From positions 64,001-128,000 of the forward strand of contig CAVPBK010000005.1 of NCBI GenBank assembly GCA_963701855.1: 64,000 bases of DNA, given 5' to 3'. Position 1 is the stretch's first letter. Every line of letters begins with the position of its first letter. Of the stretch, positions 978 to 41,736 are shown in pieces. The notes under the pieces are model-generated. The model saw nothing but the letters and a program-made list of their open reading frames with translations, ran no database searches and was not told where the DNA came from. The DNA is from Nitrospirota bacterium (GTDB lineage Bacteria; Nitrospirota; Nitrospiria; Nitrospirales; Nitrospiraceae). The position numbers and the translations under genes are program-made.

Positions 978-1620
978 GACATGCCTCTGTCAGAAAAGAC
1001 CTGGCATTCCTAGACCTGGGTCAATTGCATTTGTTTTTGAGCCTGCAGAAGGATACGGCAAATGCCTTGGAAAAACGACCAGGGAATTATGAATTCACGC
1101 GCAGGATTTTGACCCAGCCACAGAGAACCTACCCCAATTGTTCCAGGGCACCACATGAATGCTTCCACAACCCTAGGTTTTGAAACTAGATCAGAAAACC
1201 TGGTTTCCAAGAGGCTGTACCCTCGTTTTGGAGGGGGTGTGCATGCAAGATCCTAGCGTACCAGGTTGCGAAAGGCATAGGCTGAACTGTGCCACTTGAT
1301 CACTTTCCAGCAACAGATCTCGGGTCAGACATGGGTAGTGACCTCTGAGGACCACACGGGGAAATAAAGATACCATTTCGCGGCGCGTGGCGGGCCTGCT
1401 CCTTCCCCACCCTCCCTTCACACAAGACCTCCACAATTTCAACCGTCGGCTCCTTGTCGTGGGACAAATGCGGAGGTGGTGCGGGGCAAGAGATCGATGC
1501 GCCTTATGGGGAAATGGTGAGCGGTCGGATTGCCGTGATCCAGGGTTCGTACCGTTTTCCATACCGCAGGGTCACTTCATAGCGAGGCTCGTTGCCCCTC
1601 CCCGGCCTCACCGTATCGCT

Positions 1621-2942
1621 TGACCCAAAACCCGAAAAGTAGGCCAGGGGGAACGTGAGGAAATGGCCGGCGACGTGGTCTTCTTCACCGGGAAGGAGGA
1701 CCCGACGATGGCACGACGACGAGGGCATACCGAGGAACAAATCCTGGCGGCCTGGCGGCACGCGGAGGGTGGCACAGCCGTAGCGGAGGTCTGTCGAGAC
1801 GTGGGGATTAGTGAGCAGACGTTCTACGTGTGGACACGGAAGTATGCGGGGCTTGGACTGAACGAGCTACGGGAGTTGCGACAATTGCGGGAAGAGAACA
1901 CCAAGCTCAAGCGCCTGGTGGCCGATCTCTCGCTCGATCGGCACATGGTGCAGGAGATGGTCCGAAAAAAGCTGTACGGCCTCGGGACCGGCGGGTCCTG
2001 GCCCGCTGGGCGCAAATGACCTATCAAGTCAGTGAGCGCCGGGTCTCGAGGCTGTTGCCGATGGCGCGGGCCTCGTTGCGGTATCAGGGGCATCGTGATC
2101 CGCAGGAGGCGTTGCGCATGCGGGTGCGCGAGGTGGCGGCGAGCCGAGTGCGTTTCGGCTATCGACGACTCACGGTGTTGTTGCGACGGGACGGGTGGCG
2201 GGTGAACGCGAAGCGAATCTATCGGCTGTACATGGAAGAGGGCTTGATGGTGCGGACCAAAGTCCGTGTACGAGCAGCACGAAGGAACCGCGTGCCCCAG
2301 GCCGTGGCCACGGCGCCGAACCAGCGGTGGAGCATGGACTTCATGAGCGAGCGTGTGGCGGATGGGCGCTGGTTTCGGATCCTGACCGTGGTGGACCAGT
2401 TCACGCGGGAATGCCTGTGTTTGGTCGCCGACCAGTCGCTTACAGGAGAGACGGTGGCGCAGGCGGTAGAGCCGGTGGTGCTCCAGCGTGGAGCCCCACG
2501 GGCGATTACCGTGGACAACGGGAGTGAATTTGCCAGTCGCGTCATGGACGCCTGGGCCTACCGCCACGGGATTCCGTTGGACTTTATTCGGCCCGGCAAG
2601 CCTGTCGAGAATGGCTTCATCGAGAGTGTCAACGGGCGATTACGAGATGAGTGCCTGAACGTCGAGGTGTTCTTCACGCTCGAGGATGTGCGGGAGAAGT
2701 TGGCTCGGTGGCAGGAGGACGACAACCTCTTGCGACCGCACAGCGCGTTGCAGGATCAAGCGCCGGCATCCTTTGCGGCTCAGTGGGCAGCGACCGCTCA
2801 AACCCTCCATGCTCCCCAGGTCTTGTTGGAGACACTCACGTGAGGTATGTTAGGTTTGCATCGCCGCTGAAGCGGCTCAACCCGATCACGCGCAGGCCAA
2901 ATCCTCAGGTGCTAGATCGGTCTAGTTTCGTGGGGCGGGTCA
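1621..2942 (+). mobile_element. IS3-family insertion sequence, copy A
   Basis: Imperfect terminal IRs TGACCCAAAACCCGAAAAGTAGGCC and (rc) TGACCCGCCCCACGAAACTAGACC; orfA/orfB with an A6G slippery site at 1965-1971. Confidence 0.9.
1708..2843 (+). CDS. IS3 transposase OrfA/OrfB (-1 programmed frameshift), with many missense substitutions
   Basis: OrfA HTH (EEQILAA...GISEQTFYVW); OrfB rve core WSMDF, VDNGSEF, PGKPVENGFIES. Confidence 0.85.
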
Positions 2943-2995
2943 AATTCGGCCCGACCCTAACATACAGGGTGGACCGGTTTAAGGGGGCTAGGTCA
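2943..2995 (-). mobile_element. 53-bp remnant of the left end of a second IS3 type
   Basis: The rc TGACCTAGCCCCCTTAAACCGGTCCACCCTGTATGTTAGGGTCGGGCCGAA resembles the left end of the element at 18848-19231. Confidence 0.7.
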
Positions 2996-6145: not shown

Positions 6146-7363
6146 TCAACGTGAACCATATTCCTGTGGCGCCGGATCTTCCTGTGCTGCGGGCGCGTCC
6201 GCTGTGACGAGGTCGTACCCGCGCTCCGGCGTCACGACGCGCACCTTGGCGTCATCACGCAACGCGGCGCTCGGGTTATTCACGATGCGGTCGCTCGCGG
6301 AAATCCCCTCTGCGACTTCGATGACGTTGTCGAGGAGTTTGCTCACGATGATTGATTTCAAATGCACGCGGTCGTTCTCCGTCACCACGGCCACTTGTGA
6401 GCCATGCTCCTGGAACACCAAGGCGGTGGAAGGAATCGTGGTGACTTGCCTATCGACCGGCGCTGTAAGCTGGACCCGGGCATTGGAGCCGGGCCAGAGT
6501 GTTCGGTCTTCATTCTCGATCGTAAACACCGTTACCGCAGTACGCGTGCTCGCATCGAACCCGCGGGCGACGGCTAGGAATTTCGCGGTGAAATGACGAT
6601 TGGGCAATTGCGGCACGGTGACGACGGCTGTGAGGCCTGGCTGAAGGAAGGGCCCGAACGACTCCGGCACGCTGACGAAGAGGCGCAGCATATGGACATC
6701 AGCCACCGTAAAGAGGTTGGGGATCGCATTGGTGGTACCGAGAGCGCCTTCCGTACTGACCAAGTCACCGACGTTGATGTTGCGCTGGGTCACTACCCCG
6801 TCGAAGGGCGCCACGATCGTCTTGAACCGAATGAACGCCTCGATGTTCTTGACCTTTTGTTCCGCTGCTCTGACTACCGCTGCCTGGACTTTCAAGTTTT
6901 GTTCTCGCACTGCAATCGACTGCTCGGAGCCCGCATGATTTTGGCGCAGTGCCACCCAACGTTTAGCGGTCACCTCGGCGAGCCGATACTTGGCGCGTTC
7001 CGTGTCCAGATCTGCCCTGGCTTGCGCAAATTCTGTGTCGAGATCCGGCGCGTTGATTTCGGCGAGGACCTCGCCTCTCTTGACCTGGGCTCCATAGTCC
7101 TTGAACCACCTCTTCACATAGCCCGTGACTTGTGCATACATCGGAGCCTCATACCACCCCACGATATTGCCGGCAAGCGTAATGGTCTCGGTCGGCAGCC
7201 CCGGCTTTGGATAGACGACGGACACAGTGGGGACGGCGTCTTCGAGCGTCTGCTCGTTCACCAACGTAGCGTCGAGGTTCTCCGCATAGATCCGATAGCC
7301 AAGGAACAGAGCGCATAGCAGGATGGCTGAGATTGTGACGTGTCTTCCTCGAAGGGTCTTCAT
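6146..7363 (-). CDS. RND efflux periplasmic adaptor (MFP), copy 2
   Basis: MKTLRGR start behind AGGAGG; lipoyl/hairpin motifs GYVKRW..DYGAQVKRGEVLAEI and IVAPFDGVVT.RN; paralog of 7670-8881. Confidence 0.9.
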   Translation of the reverse strand: MKTLRGRHVTISAILLCALFLGYRIYAENLDATLVNEQTLEDAVPTVSVVYPKPGLPTETITLAGNIVGWYEAPMYAQVTGYVKRWFKDYGAQVKRGEVLAEINAPDLDTEFAQARADLDTERAKYRLAEVTAKRWVALRQNHAGSEQSIAVREQNLKVQAAVVRAAEQKVKNIEAFIRFKTIVAPFDGVVTQRNINVGDLVSTEGALGTTNAIPNLFTVADVHMLRLFVSVPESFGPFLQPGLTAVVTVPQLPNRHFTAKFLAVARGFDASTRTAVTVFTIENEDRTLWPGSNARVQLTAPVDRQVTTIPSTALVFQEHGSQVAVVTENDRVHLKSIIVSKLLDNVIEVAEGISASDRIVNNPSAALRDDAKVRVVTPERGYDLVTADAPAAQEDPAPQEYGSR

Positions 7364-8881: not shown

Positions 8882-10572
8882 GAAGCCTCTCCCTTTTGCC
8901 GAGCGGTTCGCCGGTTGTAAACCAGTGCATACACGCAGGGGACGAAGAACAGGGTGAAGATGGTAGCAACGAGCAAGCCGCCGATGACGGCGCGGCCTAG
9001 CGGCGCATTTTGGGAATAGCCCGTCGCCATGGGGAACATCCCGAAAATCATGGCTAAGGCAGTCATGAGCACCGGGCGGAAGCGAGTCGTTCCGGCTTCG
9101 ATCGCAGCCCGTAGCGCGTCGCCGTGTTCTTGCAGCCGCTCGCGCGCATAGGACACGACGAGGATCGAATTGGCGGTCGCCGTGCCCATGGTCATGATGG
9201 CGCCCGTCAGTGCCGGCTCCGACAGCCGCGTATGGGTCAGGAACAAGGCCCAGGCGATGCCCGCCAGTGCGCCGGGCAGGGCCGTAATGATGATGAAGGG
9301 ATCGAGCCAAGATTGGTAATTGACGGTGATCAGCAGATAGACCAGCACGATCGCGGCAAGCAGTCCTAAAATCAGCTCGGCATACGCATCATACATCAAT
9401 GAGGCCTGGCCATGGATTTCGACCTCCGCACTGCGTGGTTTCTCGCCTTCCATGCTCTTGGCAACCTGCTCGACATCCGCCAGCACCGCGCCGAGGTCGC
9501 GATCTTCAACGGATACATAGATGTCGAACAGCGGCATAATATTCCCGTGCGTGACCACGCCCGGCGTTCCCTCCGGTGTTAGTGTGGCCAAATTGCCGAG
9601 CAACTGGACCTCACCATCCGCCATGTCGTTCGAGGAATCGACCGGGATGGTCTTGAGACTATTGATGCTGTTGATCTGCGACTGCGGTGTATAGACATTG
9701 ATCAGGTACGACATGCCGGTACTGGGATCGAGCCAATAGATTTGATCGACCTGTTGGCTTCCGGCGGTTGTCATGAGAAGATTTTCGGCCATCTCCTTCA
9801 CGGTTCTGTTGACACCGAGTCCGAACGTGCGGTTGCCTTCGACCATGACGGTCGGTGTGCGCATCGTCTGCTGGACCACCACGTCCACGGCGCCGGGGAC
9901 CTGGCGAAACTTGTCGGCCAATTTACGGGCATACTCGTAGCTGGGGTAAATGTCCGGGCCGTTGACCTGCACGTCGATCGGCGCAGGCGCGCCGAAGTTA
10001 AGAATTTTTGCGGTCAGATCGGACGGCTGGAACGTGAATTCGGTTCCCGGATAGCGTTCCTTCAACCCCTGGCGGATAATTTTTCGGAAGTCCCACACCG
10101 GCGATTTTTCATTCTTCAAGAGGATCGTCAGGTCACAATCCTGAGGGCCGATCGTCGGCGTCGGAATGAAAGCGAGGTTATGCGGTCCGACCGGCAGACC
10201 ACAATTGCTGACGATGTTTTCAACTTGACCTGGCAGTAACTCCTCAATGCTTTCGGAGACGAGCGTGGCAATGCGCCCTGACACTTCGATCCGCGTCCCG
10301 AGCGGCGCTCGCATGTGCATCTGAATGACCCCCGACCTGATCTCAGGAAAGTAATCGCGTCCGAGGAAGAAAAAGAGAGACAATGAGGCCAACGCGATGG
10401 CCAGAGAAATCGTGACAAAGATGCCGCGACGGGCGATCGCCTGTTCGAGCAACAGACCATAGCGCTCGCGGATCTGATTGAAGCGGCGTTCGAACCCCTT
10501 CTGAAAGCGGACAAAAGGGTTCCGCGAGGGTTTAGCGCCCGGCTGCTCCTGCTGTTCCTGCGGCTGCGACAT
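8878..10572 (-). CDS. RND permease (AcrB family), C-terminal half
   Basis: TM7, porter domain, TM8-12 with NSILVV and RFRPVLMT; own ATG preceded by GAGGAG. Confidence 0.8.
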   Translation of the reverse strand: MSQPQEQQEQPGAKPSRNPFVRFQKGFERRFNQIRERYGLLLEQAIARRGIFVTISLAIALASLSLFFFLGRDYFPEIRSGVIQMHMRAPLGTRIEVSGRIATLVSESIEELLPGQVENIVSNCGLPVGPHNLAFIPTPTIGPQDCDLTILLKNEKSPVWDFRKIIRQGLKERYPGTEFTFQPSDLTAKILNFGAPAPIDVQVNGPDIYPSYEYARKLADKFRQVPGAVDVVVQQTMRTPTVMVEGNRTFGLGVNRTVKEMAENLLMTTAGSQQVDQIYWLDPSTGMSYLINVYTPQSQINSINSLKTIPVDSSNDMADGEVQLLGNLATLTPEGTPGVVTHGNIMPLFDIYVSVEDRDLGAVLADVEQVAKSMEGEKPRSAEVEIHGQASLMYDAYAELILGLLAAIVLVYLLITVNYQSWLDPFIIITALPGALAGIAWALFLTHTRLSEPALTGAIMTMGTATANSILVVSYARERLQEHGDALRAAIEAGTTRFRPVLMTALAMIFGMFPMATGYSQNAPLGRAVIGGLLVATIFTLFFVPCVYALVYNRRTARQKGEAS

Positions 10573-12055
10573 GGTGGCTCCTCATCATATATATCGCCAT
10601 AGTCGGCACCAGCGTACGCGATAGGATGAAAGAGGCAAGCATCGCGATGATGATCGCCTCCGCCATGGGTTTGAACAGGTAGCCGGCGACGCCGCCGAGA
10701 TCGAAGAGCGGGAGCCAGACGACCGCGATGCAGAGGGTGGCGACGAGCGTCGGCACGACGATCTGATTGGCGGCGTCGATGATGGCCTGCTCCAGATCTT
10801 TGCCCATTTCGATGTGGCGGTCGATATTTTCGATCATCACGGTCGCATCATCGACGAGAATGCCGACGGCCAGCGCCAACCCGCCCAAGGTCATGACGTT
10901 GATCGTCTCTCCGAGCAGATGCAGGCCGATGATGGCGGTTAGAATGGACAGCGGGATCGAGGTCCACACGATGACCGTGGCTCTCCAGGAACCGAGCAGC
11001 AATAACACGATGAGGCCGACCAGCGCGCCGGCGGTCAGCATTTCGTGCAGCACGTCCGAGATCGAATCCTTCACGAAGGTCGAGGCGTCGTCAAGGAGCC
11101 TGATCTCCACTCCCTCCGGAGAGATTTGCTTGGCGCGCGGGATCATCTTTTTTATCCCATCGACCACGTCGAGAGTCGAGGCCTCCGTGCTCTTCATCGC
11201 GATGATGATGACGGTCTGTTTCCCTTTCACCAGCACGGCGTTCTGTTGTACCCGGCCCATGAGGCGCACTGTGGCCACGTCGCGCAGGTAGACGAACGCA
11301 TTGCCTTCCCGCTTGATCGGAATATCGTTGAAATGTGCAATGTCCAACGGTGACGCGTTCGTCAGGACCACCCAGTCGGTCTGCTTGATCTTGATGTCGC
11401 CGGACGGCAACACCATATATTGTTTCATGAGGGCATCGTGGATGTCCGACGGGGTGAGATGCCGGGCGAGCAACTTCTGTTGATCGAGGTTGACCATGAC
11501 CTGCATGTCCTGCCCCCCGTATGGATGCGGGAGGACGATCCCCGGTACCGTCACGAGTAGAGGGCGGATTCGCATGTAAGCGAGGTTATAGAGTTCCGCG
11601 GGCGTCATGTGGTCGGAGCTGATTTGGAGCATGGCCACCGGGATAGAAGATGGCGCGAGACGCATGACCATGGGCGGAGAAATATCGGGGGGGAGAGCCT
11701 TGACGACGTTCTGCGCAATGCCCACGATATCCGCTTCGGCTCTGGCCACATCGACTCCGTCCTGGAGATAGATGTTGGTGATGCTGCTGCCGTTGTAGGA
11801 ATGGCTATGGATATATTTGATGCCCTCGACCGTCGAGGTCAAAAAGCGTTCGAATAGATACGTGATGCGCCCTTCCACCTGCTTTGGGATCATGCCGGAA
11901 TAGATCCAGACCACGGAGGTGACCGGAATCGTGATATTCGGAAAGACGTCGGTCGGCATGTGGAGCAACATCTTGGTGCCTAGTATAATAATAAGAATGG
12001 ACATGACGACGAAGGTGTAGGGTCTGCGGAGGGCAATGAGAACGATCTGGTTCAT
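10532..12055 (-). CDS. RND permease (AcrB family), N-terminal half
   Basis: MNQIVLIALRRPYTF start; TM4 GILVDDATVMIENI; ends shortly after TM6, out of frame with the C-half. Confidence 0.8.
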   Translation of the reverse strand: MNQIVLIALRRPYTFVVMSILIIILGTKMLLHMPTDVFPNITIPVTSVVWIYSGMIPKQVEGRITYLFERFLTSTVEGIKYIHSHSYNGSSITNIYLQDGVDVARAEADIVGIAQNVVKALPPDISPPMVMRLAPSSIPVAMLQISSDHMTPAELYNLAYMRIRPLLVTVPGIVLPHPYGGQDMQVMVNLDQQKLLARHLTPSDIHDALMKQYMVLPSGDIKIKQTDWVVLTNASPLDIAHFNDIPIKREGNAFVYLRDVATVRLMGRVQQNAVLVKGKQTVIIIAMKSTEASTLDVVDGIKKMIPRAKQISPEGVEIRLLDDASTFVKDSISDVLHEMLTAGALVGLIVLLLLGSWRATVIVWTSIPLSILTAIIGLHLLGETINVMTLGGLALAVGILVDDATVMIENIDRHIEMGKDLEQAIIDAANQIVVPTLVATLCIAVVWLPLFDLGGVAGYLFKPMAEAIIIAMLASFILSRTLVPTMAIYMMRSHHVAAAGTAGAAGR

Positions 12056-15939: not shown

Positions 15940-16242
15940 ATGCAGCCGTTTGGGCCTCTCGACTATGTCCTTGATCTTGGAGATAGAGCGTGCTGTTCAA
16001 GCATTGAGAGTGCCACGCCAGGAGTAGCGTGCAAAGTTCTGGTGTATCCAGAAGGTGACCCCTCTGCTGAGCGAATACTGGCTACCGGCACCCTACGCCA
16101 GATGGTACGCAAGATTCCTATCCCTTGGAGTACTGGAAGCTTAAGCGGACAGTCTCGATCCGCGCCGCAGGTTGACCACATTCATTCGAGCAACGGGCAT
16201 CTTCTGGTCTTTGCCGACAATTATCAACGTACTAAAACTTGA
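15940..16242 (+). CDS. Hypothetical protein
   Basis: ATG behind AAGGGG; 100 aa; no recognised motif. Confidence 0.35.
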   Translation: MQPFGPLDYVLDLGDRACCSSIESATPGVACKVLVYPEGDPSAERILATGTLRQMVRKIPIPWSTGSLSGQSRSAPQVDHIHSSNGHLLVFADNYQRTKT

Positions 16243-16315
16243 GTGACTATCTCGATGACTATCATACGGGCTGCCCCCCTTTGCCACCTTCTTTTGAGGG
16301 TGAAAGGAGTCGAGT

Positions 16316-16615
16316 ATGACTAATGAGGAAAATCGGGAGGCAATCCGTCCGTGGATTGATCCGAAAGAACGGGTCACGGTGAACTTCCTCGACGAGCAGG
16401 GCTTGAATGCGGAGGTGACCGACTGCAACGACGTGGTCGTGGACCTCTCACTCGAAACTCAGATACCGCATATCAAACAACACATCTCGATTCCACTGCG
16501 ACGCGCTCAAGTGCCGGAAGATCCGTCCCACTGTACTCGGAACCCTGATCGGCCACTGAAACTCATCCGTTTGATGCCGATCATTGATGAAAAGCGTCCG
16601 CCGATCGTCTACTAA
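16316..16615 (+). CDS. Hypothetical protein
   Basis: AAGGAG RBS; 99-aa soluble ORF with protein-like composition. Confidence 0.7.
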   Translation: MTNEENREAIRPWIDPKERVTVNFLDEQGLNAEVTDCNDVVVDLSLETQIPHIKQHISIPLRRAQVPEDPSHCTRNPDRPLKLIRLMPIIDEKRPPIVY

Positions 16616-19231: not shown

Positions 19232-19342
19232 AACCCTGAAAACATTTAGGATTGTGCTGAATCCATCAAACCCGATCTCTCGGCGCCATAGGCCAGCCCG
19301 CCACGAGGAAACCGGCGACTTCGAAAGTCTGGCCGCAGCGCC

Positions 19343-20554
19343 TCAGTTCGGAATGAACTTGAAGAGGCCACCGCCTTGAGTCATGACGTAGAGCTCGCCA
19401 TCAGCGTCCTCGCCGAAGCTCGTCACAGAATTGCCCGGCGGACTGAGTAACGGCCATTCTGTCTGCTCTGTGGGCTGGCCATTCTGATAACGGAAGCTCT
19501 TAACAAATCCCGCGCAAAAATCTGCATAGAAGTAAGTGCCTTGCAGCACCGGCATCGCGGATCCTCGGTAGACATACCCACCCGTGACTGCACATGCTCC
19601 GCTCAGGTGGGGATAATCGAGCACCGGCAACGTCAGGCTACCGGAGTTGCAATTCATGGCGGGGTTGAAACACAGAACCCCTTCCATCAACCGCCAACCG
19701 TAATTGGCCTGGCGCCCTGCGTTGGGGGCCACGGCGACATCGATCTCTTCTCTCGCATCCTGCCCCACATCGCCGATGTAGAGGTCGCCTTTTATGCGGT
19801 CAAAGGAGAAACGCCACGGATTCCGTAAGCCCAAACTCCAAATTTGTGGCGCGCCGCCGACGAGAATAAACGGATTAATAATGACCTTGCTGCAGGCCCC
19901 TCCTGTGCTGGGATCGAGCCGAAGGAGTTTCCCGAGCAACGAAGCTAGATTCTGCCCGTTGTTATTTGGGTCGCCGCTATCTCCCCCATCGCCGATCCCG
20001 GCATACAGACACCCATCCGGACCAAATGCCAGCATGCCGCCGTTGTGATTTGAAAAGTTTGGGTGTGCGACTGTCAGAAGCAGCGTACCTGAAGAGGCAT
20101 CGGCAAGGTTTGGGTCCGTGGCATTTCTCAGGTAACGAGCGATGACAATGTCACCAGTGGTGTTCGTGTACAAGATGTAGAATTGGTGATTCGCAGCATA
20201 CTGGGGGTCGAATGCCATCCCCAACAACCCTCGTTCACCACCTGTCGATAGAAGGCTGCTGACATTGAGGAACGCGTCCGCGAGGAGCGAACTGGTTGTG
20301 ACATCGAAAATTCGAATCTGTCCACCCTGCTCGACAATGAAGAGCCGGTTGGTGCCATCGGCAGGCGCGGTCATGAAGACCGGTGAGCTGAGAGTGGTAT
20401 TGATCGGTTGGAGGCGCAGACTAGTGGAATGAGGTAACGGTGCTAACGAGTCTTGGTCCGATCCGTTGCCGGAGCACCCAATCAGGCCTCCTGTACTGAC
20501 AAGGACCAAACCAGTTATCAACAGGAGCTGAATCGGTACCACTAGCCCCCTCAC
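19343..20554 (-). CDS. PQQ-dependent glucose/sorbosone dehydrogenase family lipoprotein
   Basis: Lipobox LIGC; GERGLLGMAFDP, NHNGGMLAFGPDG, GLRNPWRFSFD, GDVGQ and TSFGED motifs. Confidence 0.9.
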   Translation of the reverse strand: MRGLVVPIQLLLITGLVLVSTGGLIGCSGNGSDQDSLAPLPHSTSLRLQPINTTLSSPVFMTAPADGTNRLFIVEQGGQIRIFDVTTSSLLADAFLNVSSLLSTGGERGLLGMAFDPQYAANHQFYILYTNTTGDIVIARYLRNATDPNLADASSGTLLLTVAHPNFSNHNGGMLAFGPDGCLYAGIGDGGDSGDPNNNGQNLASLLGKLLRLDPSTGGACSKVIINPFILVGGAPQIWSLGLRNPWRFSFDRIKGDLYIGDVGQDAREEIDVAVAPNAGRQANYGWRLMEGVLCFNPAMNCNSGSLTLPVLDYPHLSGACAVTGGYVYRGSAMPVLQGTYFYADFCAGFVKSFRYQNGQPTEQTEWPLLSPPGNSVTSFGEDADGELYVMTQGGGLFKFIPN

Positions 20555-20737
20555 GTGATGCCAGGCTGTATCTATACGATGAAAAAAACATCAATGCCCC
20601 CTATGAAGATCCCTAGGTGACTGGGTTGCATAAATGATCAAGTGTAATGATCAGGAATGAAATAACCACCGGTCGATGTTTCCGTTGCGTGTGTCATGAA
20701 TCAAGGCGGCGTCACATCAACTGGTTGCCGACCAGAC

Positions 20738-21975
20738 TGGTCGGCCCCCTGATTTTAGGACCAATCTGAGGGAGCGTTTCCGGCATCCTGGCCCCCAGGA
20801 TGGGGAAGGAGGAGGCCATGAAACGGACACGATTCAGTGTCGAGCAGATTGTGGCGGTACTCACGCCGGCGGAGAGGGGACCCCCCGTGGCCGACCGCAT
20901 CCGCCCTCTCGGGATTGCGGAGCAGACGTGCTCCCGGTGGAAGCCGCGGGATGCGGGACTGGAATCGGAACAGGTGCGGGAGTGCAAACCGCTGCAGGAC
21001 GAGAACCCCAAGCTGACGCGCGTGGTGGCGGACTTGTCGTTGGACAAAGTCAGGCTGCAGGACGTCCTCGCAAAACAAGTCTACGGCCCTCGCGGACGCG
21101 GAGTGTGGTGACGTCTCTGTGCCCCGCGTATGCGGTGCGTGAGCGGCGCGCCTGCCGAACCGTCCGCGGTGCGAGGGCCCCCTACGACTATCGGAGTCAG
21201 CGCGATCCCCGCCCCGCACTCCGGCCGCGGCGCAGGGAGATGGCCCAGACGCGGGTCCGGTACGGGTATCGAAACATTCGGGGGCGCCTCAATCGGGACG
21301 GGGGGGCTGTGGGCAAGAAGCTCGGGTCTCGTCTCTCCCGAGAAGAAGGCCTGAGGCTGCGTCGCCGGAGCCCCCGGCGGCGAAAATCGGTGGTGCCCCG
21401 AGTGCACCGGCCGACGGTAACGAGACCGCAGGACGCGTGGCCACGAGACGGTGTGGCGGATCAACTGGTCGAGGGGCGCCGATTTCGCGCCCGCACCGGC
21501 AGCGCTGTGTATACGCGCGAGGGTGTGGCCATTGAGGTGGGCCAGCGTCTTCGCGGCGCGCACGTCGTGGCGGTGTTGACTCGGCGCAACCTCCATCGAG
21601 GCACGCCGAGGAGGCGCTTCTGTGACAACGGGAGTGAGTTCAGGAGTCAGCGAATGGACCGCTGGGCGTATCACAACACGGTCTCCATCGACTGCTCTAG
21701 ACCAGGCACGCCGACGGACCATGCGCACGTGGAATCGTGCCATGCGACGGTGTGACGGGAGGGCCTGAATGCGCACGGGTTCGAGTCACTGCGGGAGGCT
21801 CACGACCGGATCGAGGCCTGGCGGCGTGAGGAGAACGGGAGTCGGCCTCACCGGGCGCTCCAGGCTCGCACGCCCGAGGAATTCGCTAGGGCCCACGCGG
21901 AGAATCAGCGCTGTGAGCCCCGCATCACGGCGGGAAACGCTCCCTAGCAATGGCACAAAATTAAGGAGCCGACCA
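20738..21975 (+). mobile_element. Heavily mutated IS3-family element (pseudogene)
   Basis: IRs TGGTCGGCCCCCTGATTTT and (rc) TGGTCGGCTCCTTAATTTT; degraded OrfA (20818-) and OrfB with DNGSEF; slippery site disrupted; stop at 21753. Confidence 0.85.
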
Positions 21976-25962: not shown

Positions 25963-27376
25963 TGGACTGACCCCCTAGATTGAGACACGGCGAATTGGCA
26001 CACTTGACACACGAAAGGGGGTGGCAGGTGGCCAAGAAACGCGTGGGCAAGTTTCCGAAGGCTTTTCGGCAGATGGCCGTCGAGCGACTGAACCAGTGCG
26101 AGAACATCGTGGCACTCGCGAAGGAACTGGGGATCAGTCGGCGACTGCTGTATATGTGGCGCGAGAAGCTTGAGCCGGTGGCGAGTGGCAACGGTCCCCC
26201 AGCGACTTCGCGGGAATCGACCCTGCGTCACGAGGTGAGTCGCCTGAAGCGGGTGTTGGCCGAGAAGGTCTTGGAGGTGGATTTTTCAAAGGGGCCTTGC
26301 ACACCGTCGAGGCGCGACGCCAGCGGAGCGGAAAAGCTGGCGCGCAGGCCTGGACGCCCACATCCGGGACGTGATGTCGAGGCAAGGCTCATTGAGTATC
26401 GCACGGATGTGTCAGCTGGCGCAGGTCAGCCGGGCGGGTTTTTATCGGTCGCTGCACGCACACCAGCCCATGGAAGAAGAGATGGCGGTGCGGTCGGCCA
26501 TTCAGGGGATCGCTGTCACCCACCGGCGTCGGTATGGCTACCGGCGCATCACAGCGGAACTCCGTCGGCGCGGCCTCCTAGTCAACCACAAACGAGTAGT
26601 GCGGCTCATGCGCGAAGACAACCTGCTGGCGGTCCAGCCACGGGCCTTTGTGGTGACGACCGATGCGCAGCATGACCTGGAGGTGTATCTGAATCTCGCC
26701 CATCGACTGACGTTGACCGGGGTCAATCAACTCTGGGTGGCGGACATCACCTACATTCGGTTGAAGGGCGAGTTCGTCTACTTGGCGGTGCTGCTCGATG
26801 CGTATTCCCGCAAGGTCGTGGGCTGGGCGCTGGACCGCACGCTGGCCGCCCGATTGCCGATCGCGGCGCTGGCGCACGCCCTTGCGGAGCGGCACCTGCC
26901 GCCGGGGTTGGTCCATCATTCCGATCGCGGCGTGCAGTATGCCTCCGAGGCGTACGTGACCCTGCTGCGGACGCACCACATGATTCCGAGCATGAGTCGG
27001 CCGGCCAACCCCTATGACAACGCCAGTTGTGAGCGCGTCATGAAGACGCTCAAGTGGGAGGAGATCTATGCCAATACCTATCGAGATCTCGACCACCTGC
27101 GCGCGAACCTTGCGGCGTTTATCGAGCAGTACGACAATCGCGACCGGTTGCATTCGGCGCTGGGCTACCACTCACCGGACGAGTTCGAGCAGGTGGCCAG
27201 TTCGGCGACCCCTGCGACCGGAACCACCATGCGGTTTTTCAGGCCTCGAGCGCTCGCTCGAGCGGCATCATCAGCCAGGGATCAGGCTGAAGCAACAGAG
27301 GCGGGGTGAGCAGCAACATGCATTAAACTACCAGGTGTGCTAATTCCAAACTGTCTCAGTAGAGGGGTTCACCCCA
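25963..27376 (+). mobile_element. IS3-family insertion sequence
   Basis: 25-bp IRs TGGACTGACCCCCTAGATTGAGACA and (rc) TGGGGTGAACCCCTCTACTGAGACA; OrfA from about 26028 and OrfB 26371-27309. Confidence 0.9.
26371..27309 (+). CDS. IS3 transposase OrfB
   Basis: YGYRRI, WVADITY, HHSDRGVQY, NPYDNA, LHSALGY. Confidence 0.85.
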   Translation: MMSRQGSLSIARMCQLAQVSRAGFYRSLHAHQPMEEEMAVRSAIQGIAVTHRRRYGYRRITAELRRRGLLVNHKRVVRLMREDNLLAVQPRAFVVTTDAQHDLEVYLNLAHRLTLTGVNQLWVADITYIRLKGEFVYLAVLLDAYSRKVVGWALDRTLAARLPIAALAHALAERHLPPGLVHHSDRGVQYASEAYVTLLRTHHMIPSMSRPANPYDNASCERVMKTLKWEEIYANTYRDLDHLRANLAAFIEQYDNRDRLHSALGYHSPDEFEQVASSATPATGTTMRFFRPRALARAASSARDQAEATEAG

Positions 27377-27711: not shown

Positions 27712-29088
27712 ATGGCACGAGCAAAAATATCAGAACCGTCTCGCATGCGGTCCAAAGTTGCCACGATTGAAGAACTCACGCGTGGCGTCGGAGAGCTCCA
27801 GGAGTTCCTCGCACAGGTGGAAGACCTTGGTCGTGAGGGATTCCCTTATCTCGACGCAGCCAGGGCCAGAACAGAGCTGCAATTCCGTGAATGCATTCGC
27901 CGCACGTTTGGTGAGAGATCCCCGGAATTCCAAGAGCATCGTCATCACAGGCTTCTCATGGACACCCCTGAGGAAACGCGGCAGAGCATCGCCCTGATCA
28001 AGACGTTTATTGCCACACTGGAACAGAAAAAACTTAACTTGCAAGGAGGCCCACCTCCTCAACAAATCTCAGCAACGCCAGTGGCTCCACCAATGCCTAC
28101 GCGTCCACAGATGACCATAGTGCCGGCATCGATTTCGACGGTTCAGGTGACCATGACGCAAACAGGACCGATTACGCCACCGCCGGTGGCAACGAACCTC
28201 AACCGTGCTCCAGCCACCGCCGCATCGAATCTACCTCAGCCCCCTCTGGCCCCCGCAGTTTCTTTGCAGCAGTCTGAGCCCCTGAGCCCATCTATAACTC
28301 GGTCTGAACCATCACCGATTTCACCAGCCCCGATTGCGACGGCAGTGCCACATGCCCCGCTGCAACCGGTAGATCTAGGTGCTCAGGAGCCCCAGCCACC
28401 GCCAGCACAAGCGGCACAGATTGCGCAGGTAGATGTATCCCATGTCGTTGGGCCACAGCAGACACTACAACCTGAACCGGAGTCCATCGTGCATCCAATT
28501 CCTTCCGTCAGCCAACAGCCTAAGACACAGGAAACGCCTCCCGTCCTTCCGCATCTGCAGCCTCCTTCCTCGATGTCGATCGGCTCCTCTTTTCCCCAGG
28601 AGGCCGCATCGCAGCTTGCTCAGAACGGATCAACCCCTGTCGAACTTGTGAAAACACTCTGTCATCGATTCCACTCCGTTGCCCGGCAGCTGCGACTCCG
28701 CGGGGAGCATCGAGCCACGTTAAGTGTGGAAGACGAGATCGATGTGCAGGATCTGCTGCATGCATTGCTGCGAATCCAGTTTGACGATATCGATACAGAG
28801 GAATGGACGCCGAGTTATGCCGAAGGAGCCCCTCGCACAACATTTCTACTGAACGACAATCAGCTTGCGGTGCTCGTCAAAAAAACGCGAAATGGTCTCA
28901 CAGCCAAAGACCTCACTGAACAATTACGGATCGATACCGAGCGCTATCTCACCAAAAGCCGATGTACGTCGCTCTTGTGCTTTATTTACGACCCCGATGG
29001 CCGCATCGGTAATCCGAGGGCTTTCGAAACCGCGCTCACCACGGTGAACGGTTCCTTGACCATTGGTGTACTGATTGCTCCGAAATGA
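27712..29088 (+). CDS. Protein with N-terminal helical domain, long Pro-rich linker and C-terminal PD-(D/E)XK (DpnII/MboI-like) fold
   Basis: C-terminal EDEIDVQDLLHALL...EEWTPSYA...LCFIYDP.GRI.NP; catalytic acidic residues appear substituted. Confidence 0.75.
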   Translation: MARAKISEPSRMRSKVATIEELTRGVGELQEFLAQVEDLGREGFPYLDAARARTELQFRECIRRTFGERSPEFQEHRHHRLLMDTPEETRQSIALIKTFIATLEQKKLNLQGGPPPQQISATPVAPPMPTRPQMTIVPASISTVQVTMTQTGPITPPPVATNLNRAPATAASNLPQPPLAPAVSLQQSEPLSPSITRSEPSPISPAPIATAVPHAPLQPVDLGAQEPQPPPAQAAQIAQVDVSHVVGPQQTLQPEPESIVHPIPSVSQQPKTQETPPVLPHLQPPSSMSIGSSFPQEAASQLAQNGSTPVELVKTLCHRFHSVARQLRLRGEHRATLSVEDEIDVQDLLHALLRIQFDDIDTEEWTPSYAEGAPRTTFLLNDNQLAVLVKKTRNGLTAKDLTEQLRIDTERYLTKSRCTSLLCFIYDPDGRIGNPRAFETALTTVNGSLTIGVLIAPK

Positions 29089-37539: not shown

Positions 37540-38004
37540 TCATGGTGCGTTTATTCCAGTATGGGGGGCCAGGTCTGCCGTGATGCAGGACTGCATAATT
37601 TCAGCGCGGCATTGCCATGACGTGGCCGCCGTATTGAGATGGTGAACCAGTTCTTCCGGCACGATTATGCCAACGGTGATATCCACCAAGACGTGATCGG
37701 GTATGCGATGAAAATGCGCGGCGTTCACACCCTGAAGGGTGAGCAACGCCCTGCTTAGCTCGTTCTCATGGGTGTAGCAGCCAGGTCCTATCAGCACGAC
37801 GGGAACTCTCTCCATGGCAGCGTGGCTGGCTGCGGCTGGCTGAAATACGGCAAGACCCACGGTGAGCGCCATCGCAAGCATCAGACGGTTGTGTCTAAGC
37901 GTGGCCTTGCCGTCTGCATGAGGCTGTGGGCAGGTTGCGGCTACGCTCTTCGCGAAGGGCGTCTGCGTCCGGTTTGCGTATCCGCGATGAGCTGTTCGCG
38001 TCAT
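37540..38004 (-). CDS. Hypothetical exported protein, possible HMA-like ferredoxin fold
   Basis: Hydrophobic segment, then GPGC...L.GV...H...DH...C....SC; start uncertain. Confidence 0.5.
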   Translation of the reverse strand: MTRTAHRGYANRTQTPFAKSVAATCPQPHADGKATLRHNRLMLAMALTVGLAVFQPAAASHAAMERVPVVLIGPGCYTHENELSRALLTLQGVNAAHFHRIPDHVLVDITVGIIVPEELVHHLNTAATSWQCRAEIMQSCITADLAPHTGINAP

Positions 38005-38196
38005 CGGAATACCTGTCTGCAGGGAGGCGATCTGAAGCCCTTGGGTAGGTTCATCGATTTGTCTTAAGATCTCATGGTAGACGGTGATGCGAGTTGTCGG
38101 ACCATGCGAATCTCCGGTTCGGCTGGGTTGCAGTGTTCCTCTCTTGAACGCGTTCACGGGCAGGCGGCGAGGATCTCACCGCCTGCCCGTCGCCCT

Positions 38197-38643
38197 TTAC
38201 GGTACTTCGACGATGTCCTTCTTCATAGGACCCAGCACAGCAAGGAGTTCGTTCTTTTCCCTGGCTGGCACGTTGAACGTATCCAATGCCTTGACGAGGT
38301 CTTCAACCAGGGCATTGAAGGCAGCCGTCGTGATTTTCATGCCGGCATGCGTTGTTTTCATGTCTTTCCCATCATAGGTGCAGGGGCCTCCGCTGGCTTG
38401 GCAGACCTGGTCGACCAGCTGCTTCTTCAGGTGCGGCAGATCGGCATGGGCAAAATACCCGTTGATGCGGGTGTCTTGGCCCACGATGCTGACGAACTTG
38501 CCGACGACGGCCGTGATAGGGCCGGTTCCGCCGAGCCGTTCATATAGTGAGGGCAACGGAGCATCGGCTGCCCACACCGGCGATGAGATCAACAGCAAGG
38601 AGACGGTCAGCATAGTCTTGATGGCGCAAGAAAGTTGTTTCAT
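38197..38643 (-). CDS. Group I truncated hemoglobin with signal peptide
   Basis: SLYERLGG, ASGGPCTYDG.DM...H(F8)AGM, F.ALV; N-terminal signal ending VWA; AAGGAG RBS. Confidence 0.88.
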   Translation of the reverse strand: MKQLSCAIKTMLTVSLLLISSPVWAADAPLPSLYERLGGTGPITAVVGKFVSIVGQDTRINGYFAHADLPHLKKQLVDQVCQASGGPCTYDGKDMKTTHAGMKITTAAFNALVEDLVKALDTFNVPAREKNELLAVLGPMKKDIVEVP

Positions 38644-38715
38644 GAAAGGCGCTCCTTTTTGAGAGGTAATTGAGGGCTTCCTTCGAGTGCACAGCTCTAT
38701 CATATTTCAGGTCGT

Positions 38716-39663
38716 TTAGGGCTTCCAGGGCGTCAGTGGCATCAGCGGAGCATCCTTGGCTACCGGTGTAATCGTCAGCGCGGCAATGGCTCCACGAAGG
38801 GCTCCAGTGAGCGAATGCGTCACAATCGGATAGACCCCGGGTGATTCGGAGACCAAGTCGAATGTGGCGGCGCTTCCGGGTCCTACGACATAGGTTTGTA
38901 CCCCTGTGAGTTTGTTGGCAGGGTTCCCGCTCTCGTAGACGTTGTCCCAAATCTCGCCGATCGGGTGGAGCGAGGAAAACTCGTTGGGGCCCGCGTTCAC
39001 AAAATAGATCCGGACCCGCTCATTCGGTTTCGCCTCTAGCGCTTCCGCGCCGATGAAGAAGGGATGATACTTGAAGATCCCTCCGTTGAAGACCGTATAG
39101 TCGAACTTCCGAGCGAACATGGCCTCGACATCGTCGGGGTTCTTCCAGAGCTCAGATTGGACCAACAAAAACTCCCGGTCCGCTTTCGGCCAGACCTTCG
39201 GATCCTTGGGATCGACGATAATCGCGCCGAACATGCCGCGCGCGACGTGCTGAATCATGGGTGCTGCGCCGCAATGATAGAAAAACACGCCGGGCTTCTT
39301 CGCCACAAAGGTGAAGGAAATGGTTTCTCCCGGATTGATGGCCCGGTAGTTCTTCAGGAAATCGATTTCCGCCGCATGGAAGTCCATGGCGTGTGGAAAA
39401 ACATTGGTCTTGGGATTCTCCAGCGTGAAGTTGACAGTGTCACCTTCCGTGACCCGCACGGCCGGCCCCGGCATCTGGCCGTTGAACGTCCAGGCCTTAT
39501 ATTTCGTTCCCGTTCCTTCAATCACGATTTCCGTTTCGAGCGCCGTCATCTTGACGTCATGGGTCTTCGCGGATGCCTCGGAGGGCAATCCCATCAATCC
39601 GGCAATCGCAAGGGCCGTGGCCCCTGCGATGGCCATGAGTTGAGGTGATCGTCTTTTCATCAT
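38716..39663 (-). CDS. nirK: Copper-containing nitrite reductase
   Basis: HAMDFH, YHC...QHVARGM, SSLHPIG and VTH copper ligands; signal peptide. Confidence 0.9.
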   Translation of the reverse strand: MMKRRSPQLMAIAGATALAIAGLMGLPSEASAKTHDVKMTALETEIVIEGTGTKYKAWTFNGQMPGPAVRVTEGDTVNFTLENPKTNVFPHAMDFHAAEIDFLKNYRAINPGETISFTFVAKKPGVFFYHCGAAPMIQHVARGMFGAIIVDPKDPKVWPKADREFLLVQSELWKNPDDVEAMFARKFDYTVFNGGIFKYHPFFIGAEALEAKPNERVRIYFVNAGPNEFSSLHPIGEIWDNVYESGNPANKLTGVQTYVVGPGSAATFDLVSESPGVYPIVTHSLTGALRGAIAALTITPVAKDAPLMPLTPWKP

Positions 39664-39853
39664 GGTTGGACTCCTCTCTGAAATGGTTGGGCGAACTTCT
39701 CCGGGCAAATGTGCAACTGGTCTTTTCTTATGTGAAGGGTCTCACTGGCACTTCGTCTGTATGTGAGGAAAAGAATAACAGAGCAAAATTGTCTAGTGTA
39801 TATCGTAGCGTTCGGTTAAGAATCAAGCCCTTTGTTAGTCCCAAATGAGCCTG

Positions 39854-41047
39854 TGACCCAAAACCCGAAAAGTAGGCCAGGGGGAGCTTGAGGAAATGCC
39901 CCGCGACGTGGTCTTCTTAACTCAGAAGGAGGACCCGACGAGGGCACGACGACGAGGGTATATCGAAGAGCAGCTCCTGGCGGCCGTGCGACACGCGGAG
40001 GGCGGGACGACCGTAGTCGAGGGCTGTCGAGAGGTGGGGATCAGTGAGCAGACGTTCTCCCGCTGGAAACGAACGTACGTAGGGCTGGGGCTGAGCGAAC
40101 TCCGCGAGCTCCGGCAACGCCGAGAAGAGACCACGAAACTGAAGCGGCTGGCGGCCGATCTCTCACTTGATCGGCATAGGTTGCAGGAGATGGTGCGAAA
40201 AGAGCGGTACGGCCTCGGGACCGGCTGGCGCTGGCCCGCTGGGCGCACACGACCTACCAGGTCAGTGAGCGCCGACTCACGGTCGTGTTGCGGCGGGAGG
40301 GGGGCACGTGAATGCGAAACGGATCTATCGGCTGTATACGGACGAAGGGCTGACGGTGCGGACGAAACACCGCACGAAGGCCGCAGGCCGAGCCCGTGTG
40401 CCGCAGGCCCGAGCCACGGCGCCGAACGAGCGGTGGAGCATGGGTTTTATGAGCGAGCGTGTGGCGAATGGCCGCTGGGTTCGGATTCTGACCGTCGTGG
40501 ACCAGTTTACACGGGAGTGTCTGTGCTTGGTGGCGGATCAGTCGCTCACCGGAGAGACGGTGGCGGAGGCGGTAGAGCCGGTGGTGATGCACCGGGGCGC
40601 ACCGCGTGCGCTCACCGTGGACAACGGCAGCGAATTTTCCAGCCGCGTCATGGATGCCTGGGCCTACCGGCATGGGATCCCGCTGGATTTTATTCGACCG
40701 GGGAAGCCGGTGGCGAATGGCTTCATCGAGAGTGTCAATGGGCGGCTCCGTGATGAGGGTCTGAATGTGGACGTGTTCTTCACGCTGGACGAGGTGCAGG
40801 AGAAATTGGCGCGATGGCGGACGGACGATAACCTCCTACGCCCGCACAGTGCGTTTCAGGATCAGGCGCCAGTCTCTTTTGCGGCGAAGTGGTTCGCCGC
40901 CCGGCCGACGGCTCCGGCCTCTTCCGAATTGCTGGAGCCACTCACGTGAGCGATGCGAGCGTTGTAACGCTGCATGGGCGGCTCACACCGATCACGCGCA
41001 GGCCAATTCCTCAGGGCTCGATCGGTCTACATTCGCGGGGCGGGTCA
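39854..41047 (+). mobile_element. IS3-family element, copy B (relative of 1621-2942), internally deleted with start codon lost
   Basis: Same first 32 bp as copy A; right end GGGCGGGTCA; ATG->AGG; about 125 bp missing after GTGAGCGCCG. Confidence 0.9.
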
Positions 41048-41736
41048 GAAAGCCACAACATCGATTTTCATGCGGTCACTGGACCGGGTGGTGGAGCAGC
41101 AAGCCTCAATACCGACCAGGGGAGGAAAGTGAGTTACGATTTAAGGCCCTCAATGCTGGCCTCCATTTCTATCACTGTGCCACCGCATCGCCATCCATTC
41201 CTGAACACATTGCGAATGGAATGTATGGCGGGATCTTAGTTGAGCCGGTTGGCGGGCTTCCCAAGGTAGACAAAGGGTTTTATGTCGTGCAGAGCGAGTT
41301 TTACACCAAGCCTGGCAAGAAGGGCGAGACCTTGGAATTTTCGTTCGAAAATGGGTTAACGGAGCACCCGTTACATGTGGTGTTTAACGGCATGGCGGGT
41401 TCGCTTATCAAGAATCTTCTGATGGCCAAGGTGGGCGACACCATTCGAATGTATTATATCAACGCAGGACCCAATCTGACCGAAAATTGGCACGTCATCG
41501 GCGAGATATTTGACAGGGCGTACCCCAAGGGTTCCTTGATTATGCCTCCATTGCAGAACGTCCAAACCACTGTCGTGCCGGCTGGTGGCTCTTCCATGGC
41601 AGAGTTTAAGATCGAGGTGCCTGGAACCTATATCAATGTGGACCACGCAATCTTCCGCATCGCAAAAGGCGCCGTTGGCCTGATAAAGGTGGAAGGTGCG
41701 GAGTAATCGGACATCTACAAGAACCTCCTGAAGTAA
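41048..41736 (+). pseudogene. nirK: Second nirK (AniA-type), 5'-truncated by IS3 and frameshifted
   Basis: HNIDFHAVTGPGGGA, then after a frameshift YHCAT...HIANGMYG, WHVIGEIFD, VDHAIFR; premature stop at 41704. Confidence 0.85.

Follow-up and report, generated by a model that had tools for sequence, protein, structure and literature searches.

The window analysed in this study is a stretch of 64,000 nucleotides from a Nitrospirota bacterium, corresponding to positions 64001-128000 of contig 5 in a 4.30-Mb draft genome of 15 contigs and 55.6% GC (G000). At positions 20738-21975 it holds an insertion sequence (IS) of the IS3 family, hereafter the element, whose parts are listed in Table 1 together with the other IS3-family copies of the window. 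The closest annotated relatives of the element are ISBvi7-like IS3 transposases on proteobacterial plasmids, with ~67% DNA identity over 41% of the query, and in tblastn comparisons ISBvi7-like proteins were 63% identical to the element in OrfA and 55% identical in OrfB. The two-frame layout of the family is present. An OrfA frame with a helix-turn-helix (HTH) is followed by an OrfB frame with an rve/DDE integrase core, and these scored 39.5 bits against Pfam HTH_Tnp_1 (region 20800-21111) and 33.9 bits against Pfam rve (cut-off 32.6), respectively. Both ends match the 5'-TG...CA-3' rule of IS3-family elements, and the terminal TGGTCGGC was retained in all seven full-length copies compared. 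The 4-nt flanks are AGAC on the left and AGGC on the right, and no clean target-site duplication of the short (3-4 bp) kind typical of the family was seen here or at any of the seven listed copies.

Table 1. Coordinates of the element, its parts and the other IS3-family copies, in window positions.
Feature	Position	Strand	Basis or remark
IS3-family (IS407/ISBvi7-like) element, hypermutated and dead	20738..21975	+	1238 bp
Left terminal inverted repeat, TGGTCGGCC...	20738..20762	+	Sequence reading
Right terminal inverted repeat, ...GGAGCCGACCA	21951..21975	+	Sequence reading
OrfA-homologous frame (HTH), open, heavily substituted (K>T, Q>P, M>R, L>R, H>P, F>C, Y>S, Y>D and others)	20818..21081	+	Translations; Pfam HTH_Tnp_1
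Former -1 frameshift site, destroyed: AAAACAAG	21072..21079	+	Seven A's in sister copy G216a (alignment column 342)
Former OrfA stop, now TAC	21082..21084	+	TAA in the G216 and G176 sister copies
OrfB-homologous frame (rve/DDE integrase core), ending with TAG at 21945-21947	21078..21947	+	Translation; Pfam rve
Sole in-frame OrfB stop, TGA	21753..21755	+	CGA in the second copy; C>T private to the window copy
IS407-group relic of a different lineage, moderate A:T>C:G excess, ~120-bp internal deletion	39854..41049	+	Singleton counts
Sister relic of the 39854 element, weak or no excess	1620..2944	+	Singleton counts
Apparently intact element from another group of the IS3 family, free of A:T>C:G excess	25963..27309	+	Open frames; rve 82.6 bits

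Close relatives of the element were sought in 85 genomes of the genus, most of the genomes compared in this work being metagenome bins, and were found in G216 and G176. G216 holds two near-intact copies, with 99.4% identity between them and 90% identity to the element; one of them has an OrfB open for 402 codons, and one (G216a) has an intact seven-A frameshift run. The G176 copy is 88.5% identical to the element, and more distant copies were found in G166, G169, G212, G131, G124 and G025. The GC content of the element is 67.0% (A.184, C.302, G.368, T.145), compared to 55.6% for the genome and 60.7-61.3% for its nearest relatives. The flanks of the element were not enriched in GC.

A preliminary description of the window, made from its letters and from the family pattern, had read the element as a transposase in which most departures from the IS3 pattern are single A>C or T>G changes. 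We counted differences between existing sequences and polarised them with outgroups; a change was assigned to the element's branch where the three close sister copies (two from G216 and one from G176) all had one state and this state also occurred in one or more of six outgroups. By this rule 89 changes fell on the element's branch, and 70 of these were A:T>C:G, which bears out the initial reading. The remainder were A:T>G:C (5), G:C>A:T (9) and G:C>C:G (5), with no A:T>T:A and no G:C>T:A. The A:T>C:G load amounts to 70 of 428 ancestral A/T sites (16.4%), compared to 19 other changes in 1137 sites. Both strands were affected alike, with T>G at 39 of 200 T sites and A>C at 31 of 228 A sites; A>G was seen three times and A>T never. 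The share of A:T>C:G among the changes was 23/26 for first codon positions, 35/36 for second ones, 9/16 for third ones and 3/11 for non-coding sequence, and the mutated sites were evenly distributed along the element without clustering. The element carries a near-pure, strand-symmetric A:T>C:G load that is confined to it and ends at its inverted repeats; the lack of GC enrichment in the flanks and the intact gene to the left (see the last paragraph) speak for this confinement. The ancestral residues assumed in the preliminary description proved largely right, although intact sisters also show a few of the supposed changes (e.g. PGTPTD and NAH in the catalytic region), which are thus family traits rather than products of hypermutation.

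The sequence context of the changes was not uniform. A T preceded by C had mutated at 33 of 127 sites, compared to 9-14 of 78-128 for the other 5' neighbours (p = 0.005), and among trinucleotides the rates were 8/19 at CTT, 0/21 at GTT, 3/42 at GTC and 5/31 at TTC. A T>G hotspot after runs of G was considered and rejected, since a 5' G showed the lowest rate (14/128). A cruder polarisation with distant relatives alone gave 73 A:T>C:G changes out of 204 and 52 G:C>C:G changes, 39 of them at third codon positions; the third-position G:C>C:G changes appear to reflect older divergence of a synonymous type.

The consequences for the reading frames were as first described. The A-run is altered and the OrfA stop has become TAC, in line with the comparison to sister copies (Table 1). 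The element has no IS3-type frameshift site because the A-run was lost by mutation, and it is a dead member of its family. By A:T>C:G changes only TAT and TTA codons can turn into stops, which is why the frames nevertheless remain open.

To judge the authenticity of the sequence we turned to soil metagenomes. Twenty runs of 14 studies held part of the sampled words of the stretch (shares 0.14-0.57), and contigs from four of these metagenomes (X1-X4, four studies) were compared and matched the stretch; the comparison used assembled contigs in place of raw reads, and the source sample may be among the runs. The left junction of the window copy was bridged by X2 record 9 (20400-21558, 13 other letters) and X1 record 2, and both junctions of a second copy on contig 6 (the C6 copy, described below) were bridged as well. 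The presence of the same sequence and junctions in soil-metagenome contigs indicates that the element is not an assembly artefact. The listed differences between the window and the contigs that bridge its left junction were, inside the element, mostly transitions, which weakly suggests that the burst is not now running in place.

The preliminary description had further held that the excess is restricted to IS3 repeats, and had proposed four-fold sites and the state of mutT as controls. For the host background, a 40-kb region around rpoB was compared with its counterparts in G162, the nearest genome (96-98% identical), and in the outgroups G190 and G185. On this genome's own branch, A:T>C:G accounted for 6 of 225 changes at four-fold sites of 19 open reading frames (ORFs) and for 35 of 661 at all aligned sites, which is 0.25% per A/T site compared to 16.4% in the element. 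Host spectra consisted mostly of transitions. The intergenic sites of this core region (553, with one change) were too few to serve as a control, and the non-coding control consisted of four short-repeat families of this genome, a fifth with only seven copies being dropped; singletons in these repeats were A:T>C:G in 29 of 226 cases. The share of A:T>C:G in the element exceeded that at four-fold sites (Fisher, p = 1e-44) and in the non-coding repeats (p = 5e-29). Truncated IS relics of the same lineage in G162 and G190, equally dead, had one A:T>C:G change in 32, compared to 28 of 38 in the element over the shared stretches (p = 6e-10). The excess in the element thus differs from the genome's own neutral spectrum; it is one-directional and confined to IS copies, as originally claimed.

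A mutT-like gene is intact in this genome. It is a 157-aa ORF with a NUDIX box that scored 97.9 bits against TIGR00586, exactly the cut-off. A MutT-like protein was found in 78 of the 85 genus genomes, including those with A:T>C:G-loaded IS copies, and the gene has no internal stops in this genome, G176, G195, G069 and G216. Of the marks of a MutT-type host signature, the near-exclusive A:T>C:G spectrum was found, and genome-wide spread and a defective mutT were not. Two Y-family polymerase genes are present in the genome. A short mutY-like ORF overlaps the start of the mutT-like ORF (contig 10, 51649-52832; L091 649-1431 and 1359-1832). It encodes 260 aa, scored 239 bits against TIGR01084 (below the cut-off of 286.5) and matched model positions 2-216 only, so that the MutY of this genome may lack its C-terminal domain.

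The history of the element was examined through its copies. In this genome the C6 copy (C6:361910-362872) is truncated at element position 275, lies between different flanks and is 97.7% identical to the window copy. The two copies differ at 22 sites and nearly all mutated states are common to both, which shows that the burst predates copying to the second locus. Of the 16 polarised post-duplication differences, six were A:T>C:G, compared to 29 of 226 in the repeats (p = 0.016). Among the window, G216 and G176 copies, differences outside the A<>C/G<>T class were equidistant (39, 46 and 39), and those within the class numbered 87, 96 and 34. As ordinary divergence is equal among the three lineages, the extra A<>C/G<>T load stems from a separate process; by arithmetic from the pairwise counts it amounts to ~75 changes on the window branch and ~21 on the G176 branch. 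Derived states shared by the window element with the G176 copy number 21, 10 of them A:T>C:G, and on its own branch the G176 copy shows 15 A:T>C:G changes out of 40. A fragment in G195 carries 5 of the 18 hypermutated sites that it covers. The two G216 copies differ at seven sites, every one of them A<>C or T<>G, and five or more of these polarise as A:T>C:G in one copy. Collectively, these comparisons of existing copies indicate that the A:T>C:G load was built up stepwise along one mobile IS lineage across genomes.

The insertion sites of the window, C6 and G176 copies are all different, which means that the mutated element was mobilised through its ends. The IS copies differ from one another by only 3-4% in ordinary divergence, much less than their hosts do (rpoB 91-99% identical), so the lineage does move between strains. 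Synteny around the element was absent in the five nearest genomes, and no empty site was found there; a genome-wide self-comparison yielded no unmutated partner of the element and no pair with more than 34% one-directional A:T>C:G. Orthology of the C6 copy with the G176 copy was considered and rejected, since their shared flank of ~48 nt is the end of another multi-copy repeat. The C6 copy is inserted ~8 nt from the end of this repeat (contig 6, 361510-361909; copies of 98-100% identity at C9:507838, C13:97275 and C12:14047), and the G176 copy adjoins an end of this type too, so that the terminus of that repeat may be a preferred target. At the left end of the window copy (20727-20745), the 8 nt GCCGACCA lie 3 nt before the inverted repeat and are the reverse complement of the element's first 8 nt. 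The resulting arrangement, GCCGACCA-GAC-TGGTCGGC, resembles a junction between a right and a left IS end, or what is left of the end of a second copy.

The same pattern had been reported for the IS3 elements at 1621, 25963 and 39854; it was recovered at 39854, was weak at best at 1621 and was absent at 25963. The relics at 1621 and 39854 have ESV and DDN in common and belong to a second IS407-group lineage, which we compared together with seven copies from other genomes. A:T>C:G singletons numbered 14 of 39 in the 39854 copy, 21 of 37 in a G069 copy, 4 of 19 in the 1621 copy and 2-6 of 21-37 in the other six; as a dose, this is 5.7% of A/T sites for the 39854 relic and 1.6% for the 1621 relic. 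The 39854 relic lies upstream of the amo region and has the same left flank (38000-39853) in G197, G210, G179 and G123. In G157 the site is precisely empty, with the flank joined at query 1852/3052; the flank matches of G162 and G216 end at the left end of the relic (query 1859 and 1847, respectively). Between its IS part and its flank, A:T>C:G singletons were 6 of 37 and 0 of 17. The IS part differs from its orthologues 11 times more than the flank does, with 14 G:C>C:G changes, and has probably been overwritten by a paralogue in this genome, so that the comparison of inside and flank is not clean. In a third IS407-group lineage, a decayed copy at C6:843k had 12 A:T>C:G changes out of 46 over 355 bp, compared to 0 of 13 in the intact-looking sister at C5:16k. 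The frames of the 25963 element are open, and relative to its partner on contig 13 it showed no asymmetry (12 and 10 in the two directions), with transitions making up 38 of 90 differences.

The mechanism that we favour, though only tentatively, is low-fidelity synthesis that is coupled to mobility and limited to the element. The chemistry would be of the nucleotide-pool type, with a wrong G placed opposite A during DNA synthesis, as occurs with 8-oxo-dGTP. Since only the element is marked, the synthesis concerned would have been restricted to it. Transposition in the IS3 family follows the copy-out-paste-in route, and what is replicated there is the element alone. The candidate synthesis would be the copy-out replication at each mobilisation, which may be of low fidelity or may draw on a damaged nucleotide pool. 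A lineage would gain A:T>C:G changes while moving until its transposase was dead, and dead copies with intact ends could then be mobilised by a helper copy. The A:T>C:G load would be a by-product of mobility and not of repeat-sensing silencing. The preliminary description had named mutagenesis of a transposition intermediate as one option, and of the options considered this best fits the data.

Several points weigh against this mechanism. No transposition intermediate has been observed, and no intact helper of this IS lineage was found in this genome. The direction of change rests on parsimony applied to tip sequences. The mutations are common to both copies, so that in the last move, at least, the template was already dead and few changes were added. 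As G216b is located at the start of a contig, assembly errors could account for its five private changes. In the 25963-type group of IS3 elements, one pair in this genome is 100% identical over 1251 bp and the other near-identical pairs have 13 A<>C/G<>T differences out of 37, which indicates that mobility does not always mutate. The context is also unlike the oxo-dGTP or Pol IV hot contexts of Pseudomonas aeruginosa, given as GAA+TTC, GAC+GTC and AAC+GTT in PMC12318082.

The main rival, which we regard as rather unlikely, is that the IS lineage once passed through a MutT-deficient or 8-oxo-dGTP-loaded strain, or a mutagenic replicon, and was then exported by helper transposition or gene transfer. 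All neutral DNA would have been mutated in such a source, and only the exported element would bear the scar in ordinary genomes. The spectrum is indeed the textbook mutT signature; the P. aeruginosa mutT lines of PMC12318082 raise only A:T>C:G, by 617-fold. By our own arithmetic, 16.4% A:T>C:G and ~1.9% ordinary change are compatible with part-time residence, and the movement of the lineage between strains agrees with export. However, the mutT-like gene is free of internal stops in the genomes named above, and this genome's own branch shows only its low background of A:T>C:G. The doses within this one genome are unequal (the window branch compared to the 39854 and 1621 singletons), and all seven differences between the G216 copies are A<>C/T<>G while singletons in the G216 flank are 0 of 4. 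Such a passage would also require the repeated export of dead copies from an unsampled source.

A dedicated host system that detects IS DNA and mutates it in place, as a bacterial counterpart of fungal repeat-induced point mutation (RIP) or APOBEC editing, appears improbable. It would account for a signature that is confined to IS copies and seen in three IS407-group lineages and several genomes, and for the continued enrichment among post-duplication differences. An element-targeted, RIP-like inactivation had been proposed in the preliminary description. We found no support for it, because a duplication-triggered process would mutate each copy independently and almost all mutations are common to the two copies. 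The sister relics in G162 and G190 and the intact IS3 at 25963 also lack the pattern, and the soil contigs bridging the junction depart from the window mostly by transitions. No enzyme is known to convert A:T directly into C:G. Ordinary decay, whether by normal neutral drift of an old pseudogene, by the composition of a GC-rich donor or by GC-biased gene conversion, is very improbable. IS relics of this family are generally transversion-rich and G:C>C:G is common at third codon positions, but host spectra are dominated by transitions, 35 of the A:T>C:G changes lie at second codon positions, and the nearest relatives, with 60.7-62.0% GC, all come from this genus. Only 5 A:T>G:C changes alongside 70 A:T>C:G would be expected under neither biased conversion nor amelioration. 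An artefact of sequencing or assembly is hardly credible. Short reads often carry A>C and T>G errors through a known instrument bias, and the genome is a draft, but two of its loci bear the same mutated sequence, as do the metagenome contigs, including junction-bridging pieces, with the possible source sample noted above.

Several known systems resemble the element in part. In MutT-deficient (8-oxo-dGTP) cells the spectrum likewise consists almost wholly of A:T>C:G, on either strand, and other changes are few; in contrast, it is genome-wide there, whereas here it stops at the ends of a 1.2-kb element in a genome with an intact mutT-like gene. According to PMC12318082, 8-oxo-dGTP opposite A is the mutT and Pol IV route to A:T>C:G in bacteria, and the trinucleotide preference of the element is unlike the one given there. 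The same study describes A:T>C:G changes concentrated in particular P. aeruginosa genes by a low-fidelity polymerase and a damaged pool, which resembles our case; those are mutT-deficient laboratory lines in which 5'G/3'C flanks are preferred, whereas the target here is a mobile element that was mutated rarely at GTC and GTT and often at CTT. GC-biased gene conversion differs in that it favours all AT>GC changes, including transitions.

Fungal RIP is comparable in that transposon copies are killed, and their base composition is shifted, by heavy mutation of one class. RIP produces C>T transitions in a dinucleotide context at duplicated DNA and mutates each copy separately, whereas the element shows A:T>C:G changes common to two copies and only 9 G:C>A:T changes out of 89. 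Diversity-generating retroelements are a further case of localised, base-specific hypermutation in bacteria. They change adenines of one strand to any base within a variable repeat of ~100 bp, using a template repeat and a reverse transcriptase; in the element, T>G equals A>C on one strand (39 and 31), A>G and A>T are rare or absent, and the changes extend over 1.2 kb. The trinucleotide CTT, at which the element has its top rate, is the SBS17b context, and bacteria are not known to have REV1. In bioRxiv 10.64898/2026.08.21.746158, T>G changes of the SBS17b type arise in human cells by uracil incorporation and subsequent abasic-site bypass, and are similar to ours in that T>G follows incorporation of a wrong nucleotide during DNA synthesis; this route differs in needing REV1 to place C opposite the abasic site.

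Full-text literature searches, which did not cover subscription-only papers, turned up neither insertion sequences hypermutated by A:T>C:G changes nor a bacterial process akin to RIP. Fungi (RIP) and retroelements edited by APOBEC enzymes provide known cases of mobile elements killed by hypermutation, and these searches found nothing comparable for bacterial IS. It is quite possible, if still somewhat doubtful, that IS407-group IS of Nitrospira undergo element-confined showers of A:T>C:G changes, through copy-out synthesis or through a host activity aimed at IS DNA, and that they thereby mutate to death yet stay readable. If true, bacteria would have their first example of hypermutation confined to transposons, and the spread of IS would be checked by a built-in brake. 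Loading of IS copies by mobility or by host activity would account for the many readable but dead IS3 relics in these genomes, would provide a new sequence-readable clock and tracer of IS lineages, and would point to element-limited DNA synthesis of very low fidelity. A note of caution applies to metagenomes, in which GC-rich, open-frame "transposases" may be hypermutated dead copies.

Some further observations were made in the window and elsewhere in the genome. The gene ending 183 bp to the left of the element encodes an intact 403-aa homologue of glucose/sorbosone dehydrogenase (GSDH). Just after the 25963 element, at 27712-29088, lies a 458-aa ORF with a C-terminal restriction endonuclease domain of the DpnII/MboI type (Pfam, 175 bits). 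In the alignment of contig 4, 166001-206000, with G162, this genome's branch had 661 changes compared to 398 on the sister's branch, and the excess was mostly G:C>A:T (350 and 184, respectively). Within that region, contig 4, 186001-206000 (L038), holds five non-coding repeat families of 150-240 bp, at 7029-7244, 9350-9593, 11357-11509, 16147-16352 and 19249-19439. These are similar to repetitive extragenic palindromes (REP) or miniature inverted-repeat transposable elements (MITE), with 26-120 matches in this genome; every relative searched also holds many copies, and the repeats supplied the neutral non-coding control described above. A paralogous pair at C9:494814-495927 and C14:74596-75710, 75% identical, had one-sided A:T<>C:G differences (83 and 11 of 274). 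On contig 6, at 1189068-1200066, a tandem array of ~11 kb was found in which self-matches are offset by multiples of 354 bp at >99.9% identity.

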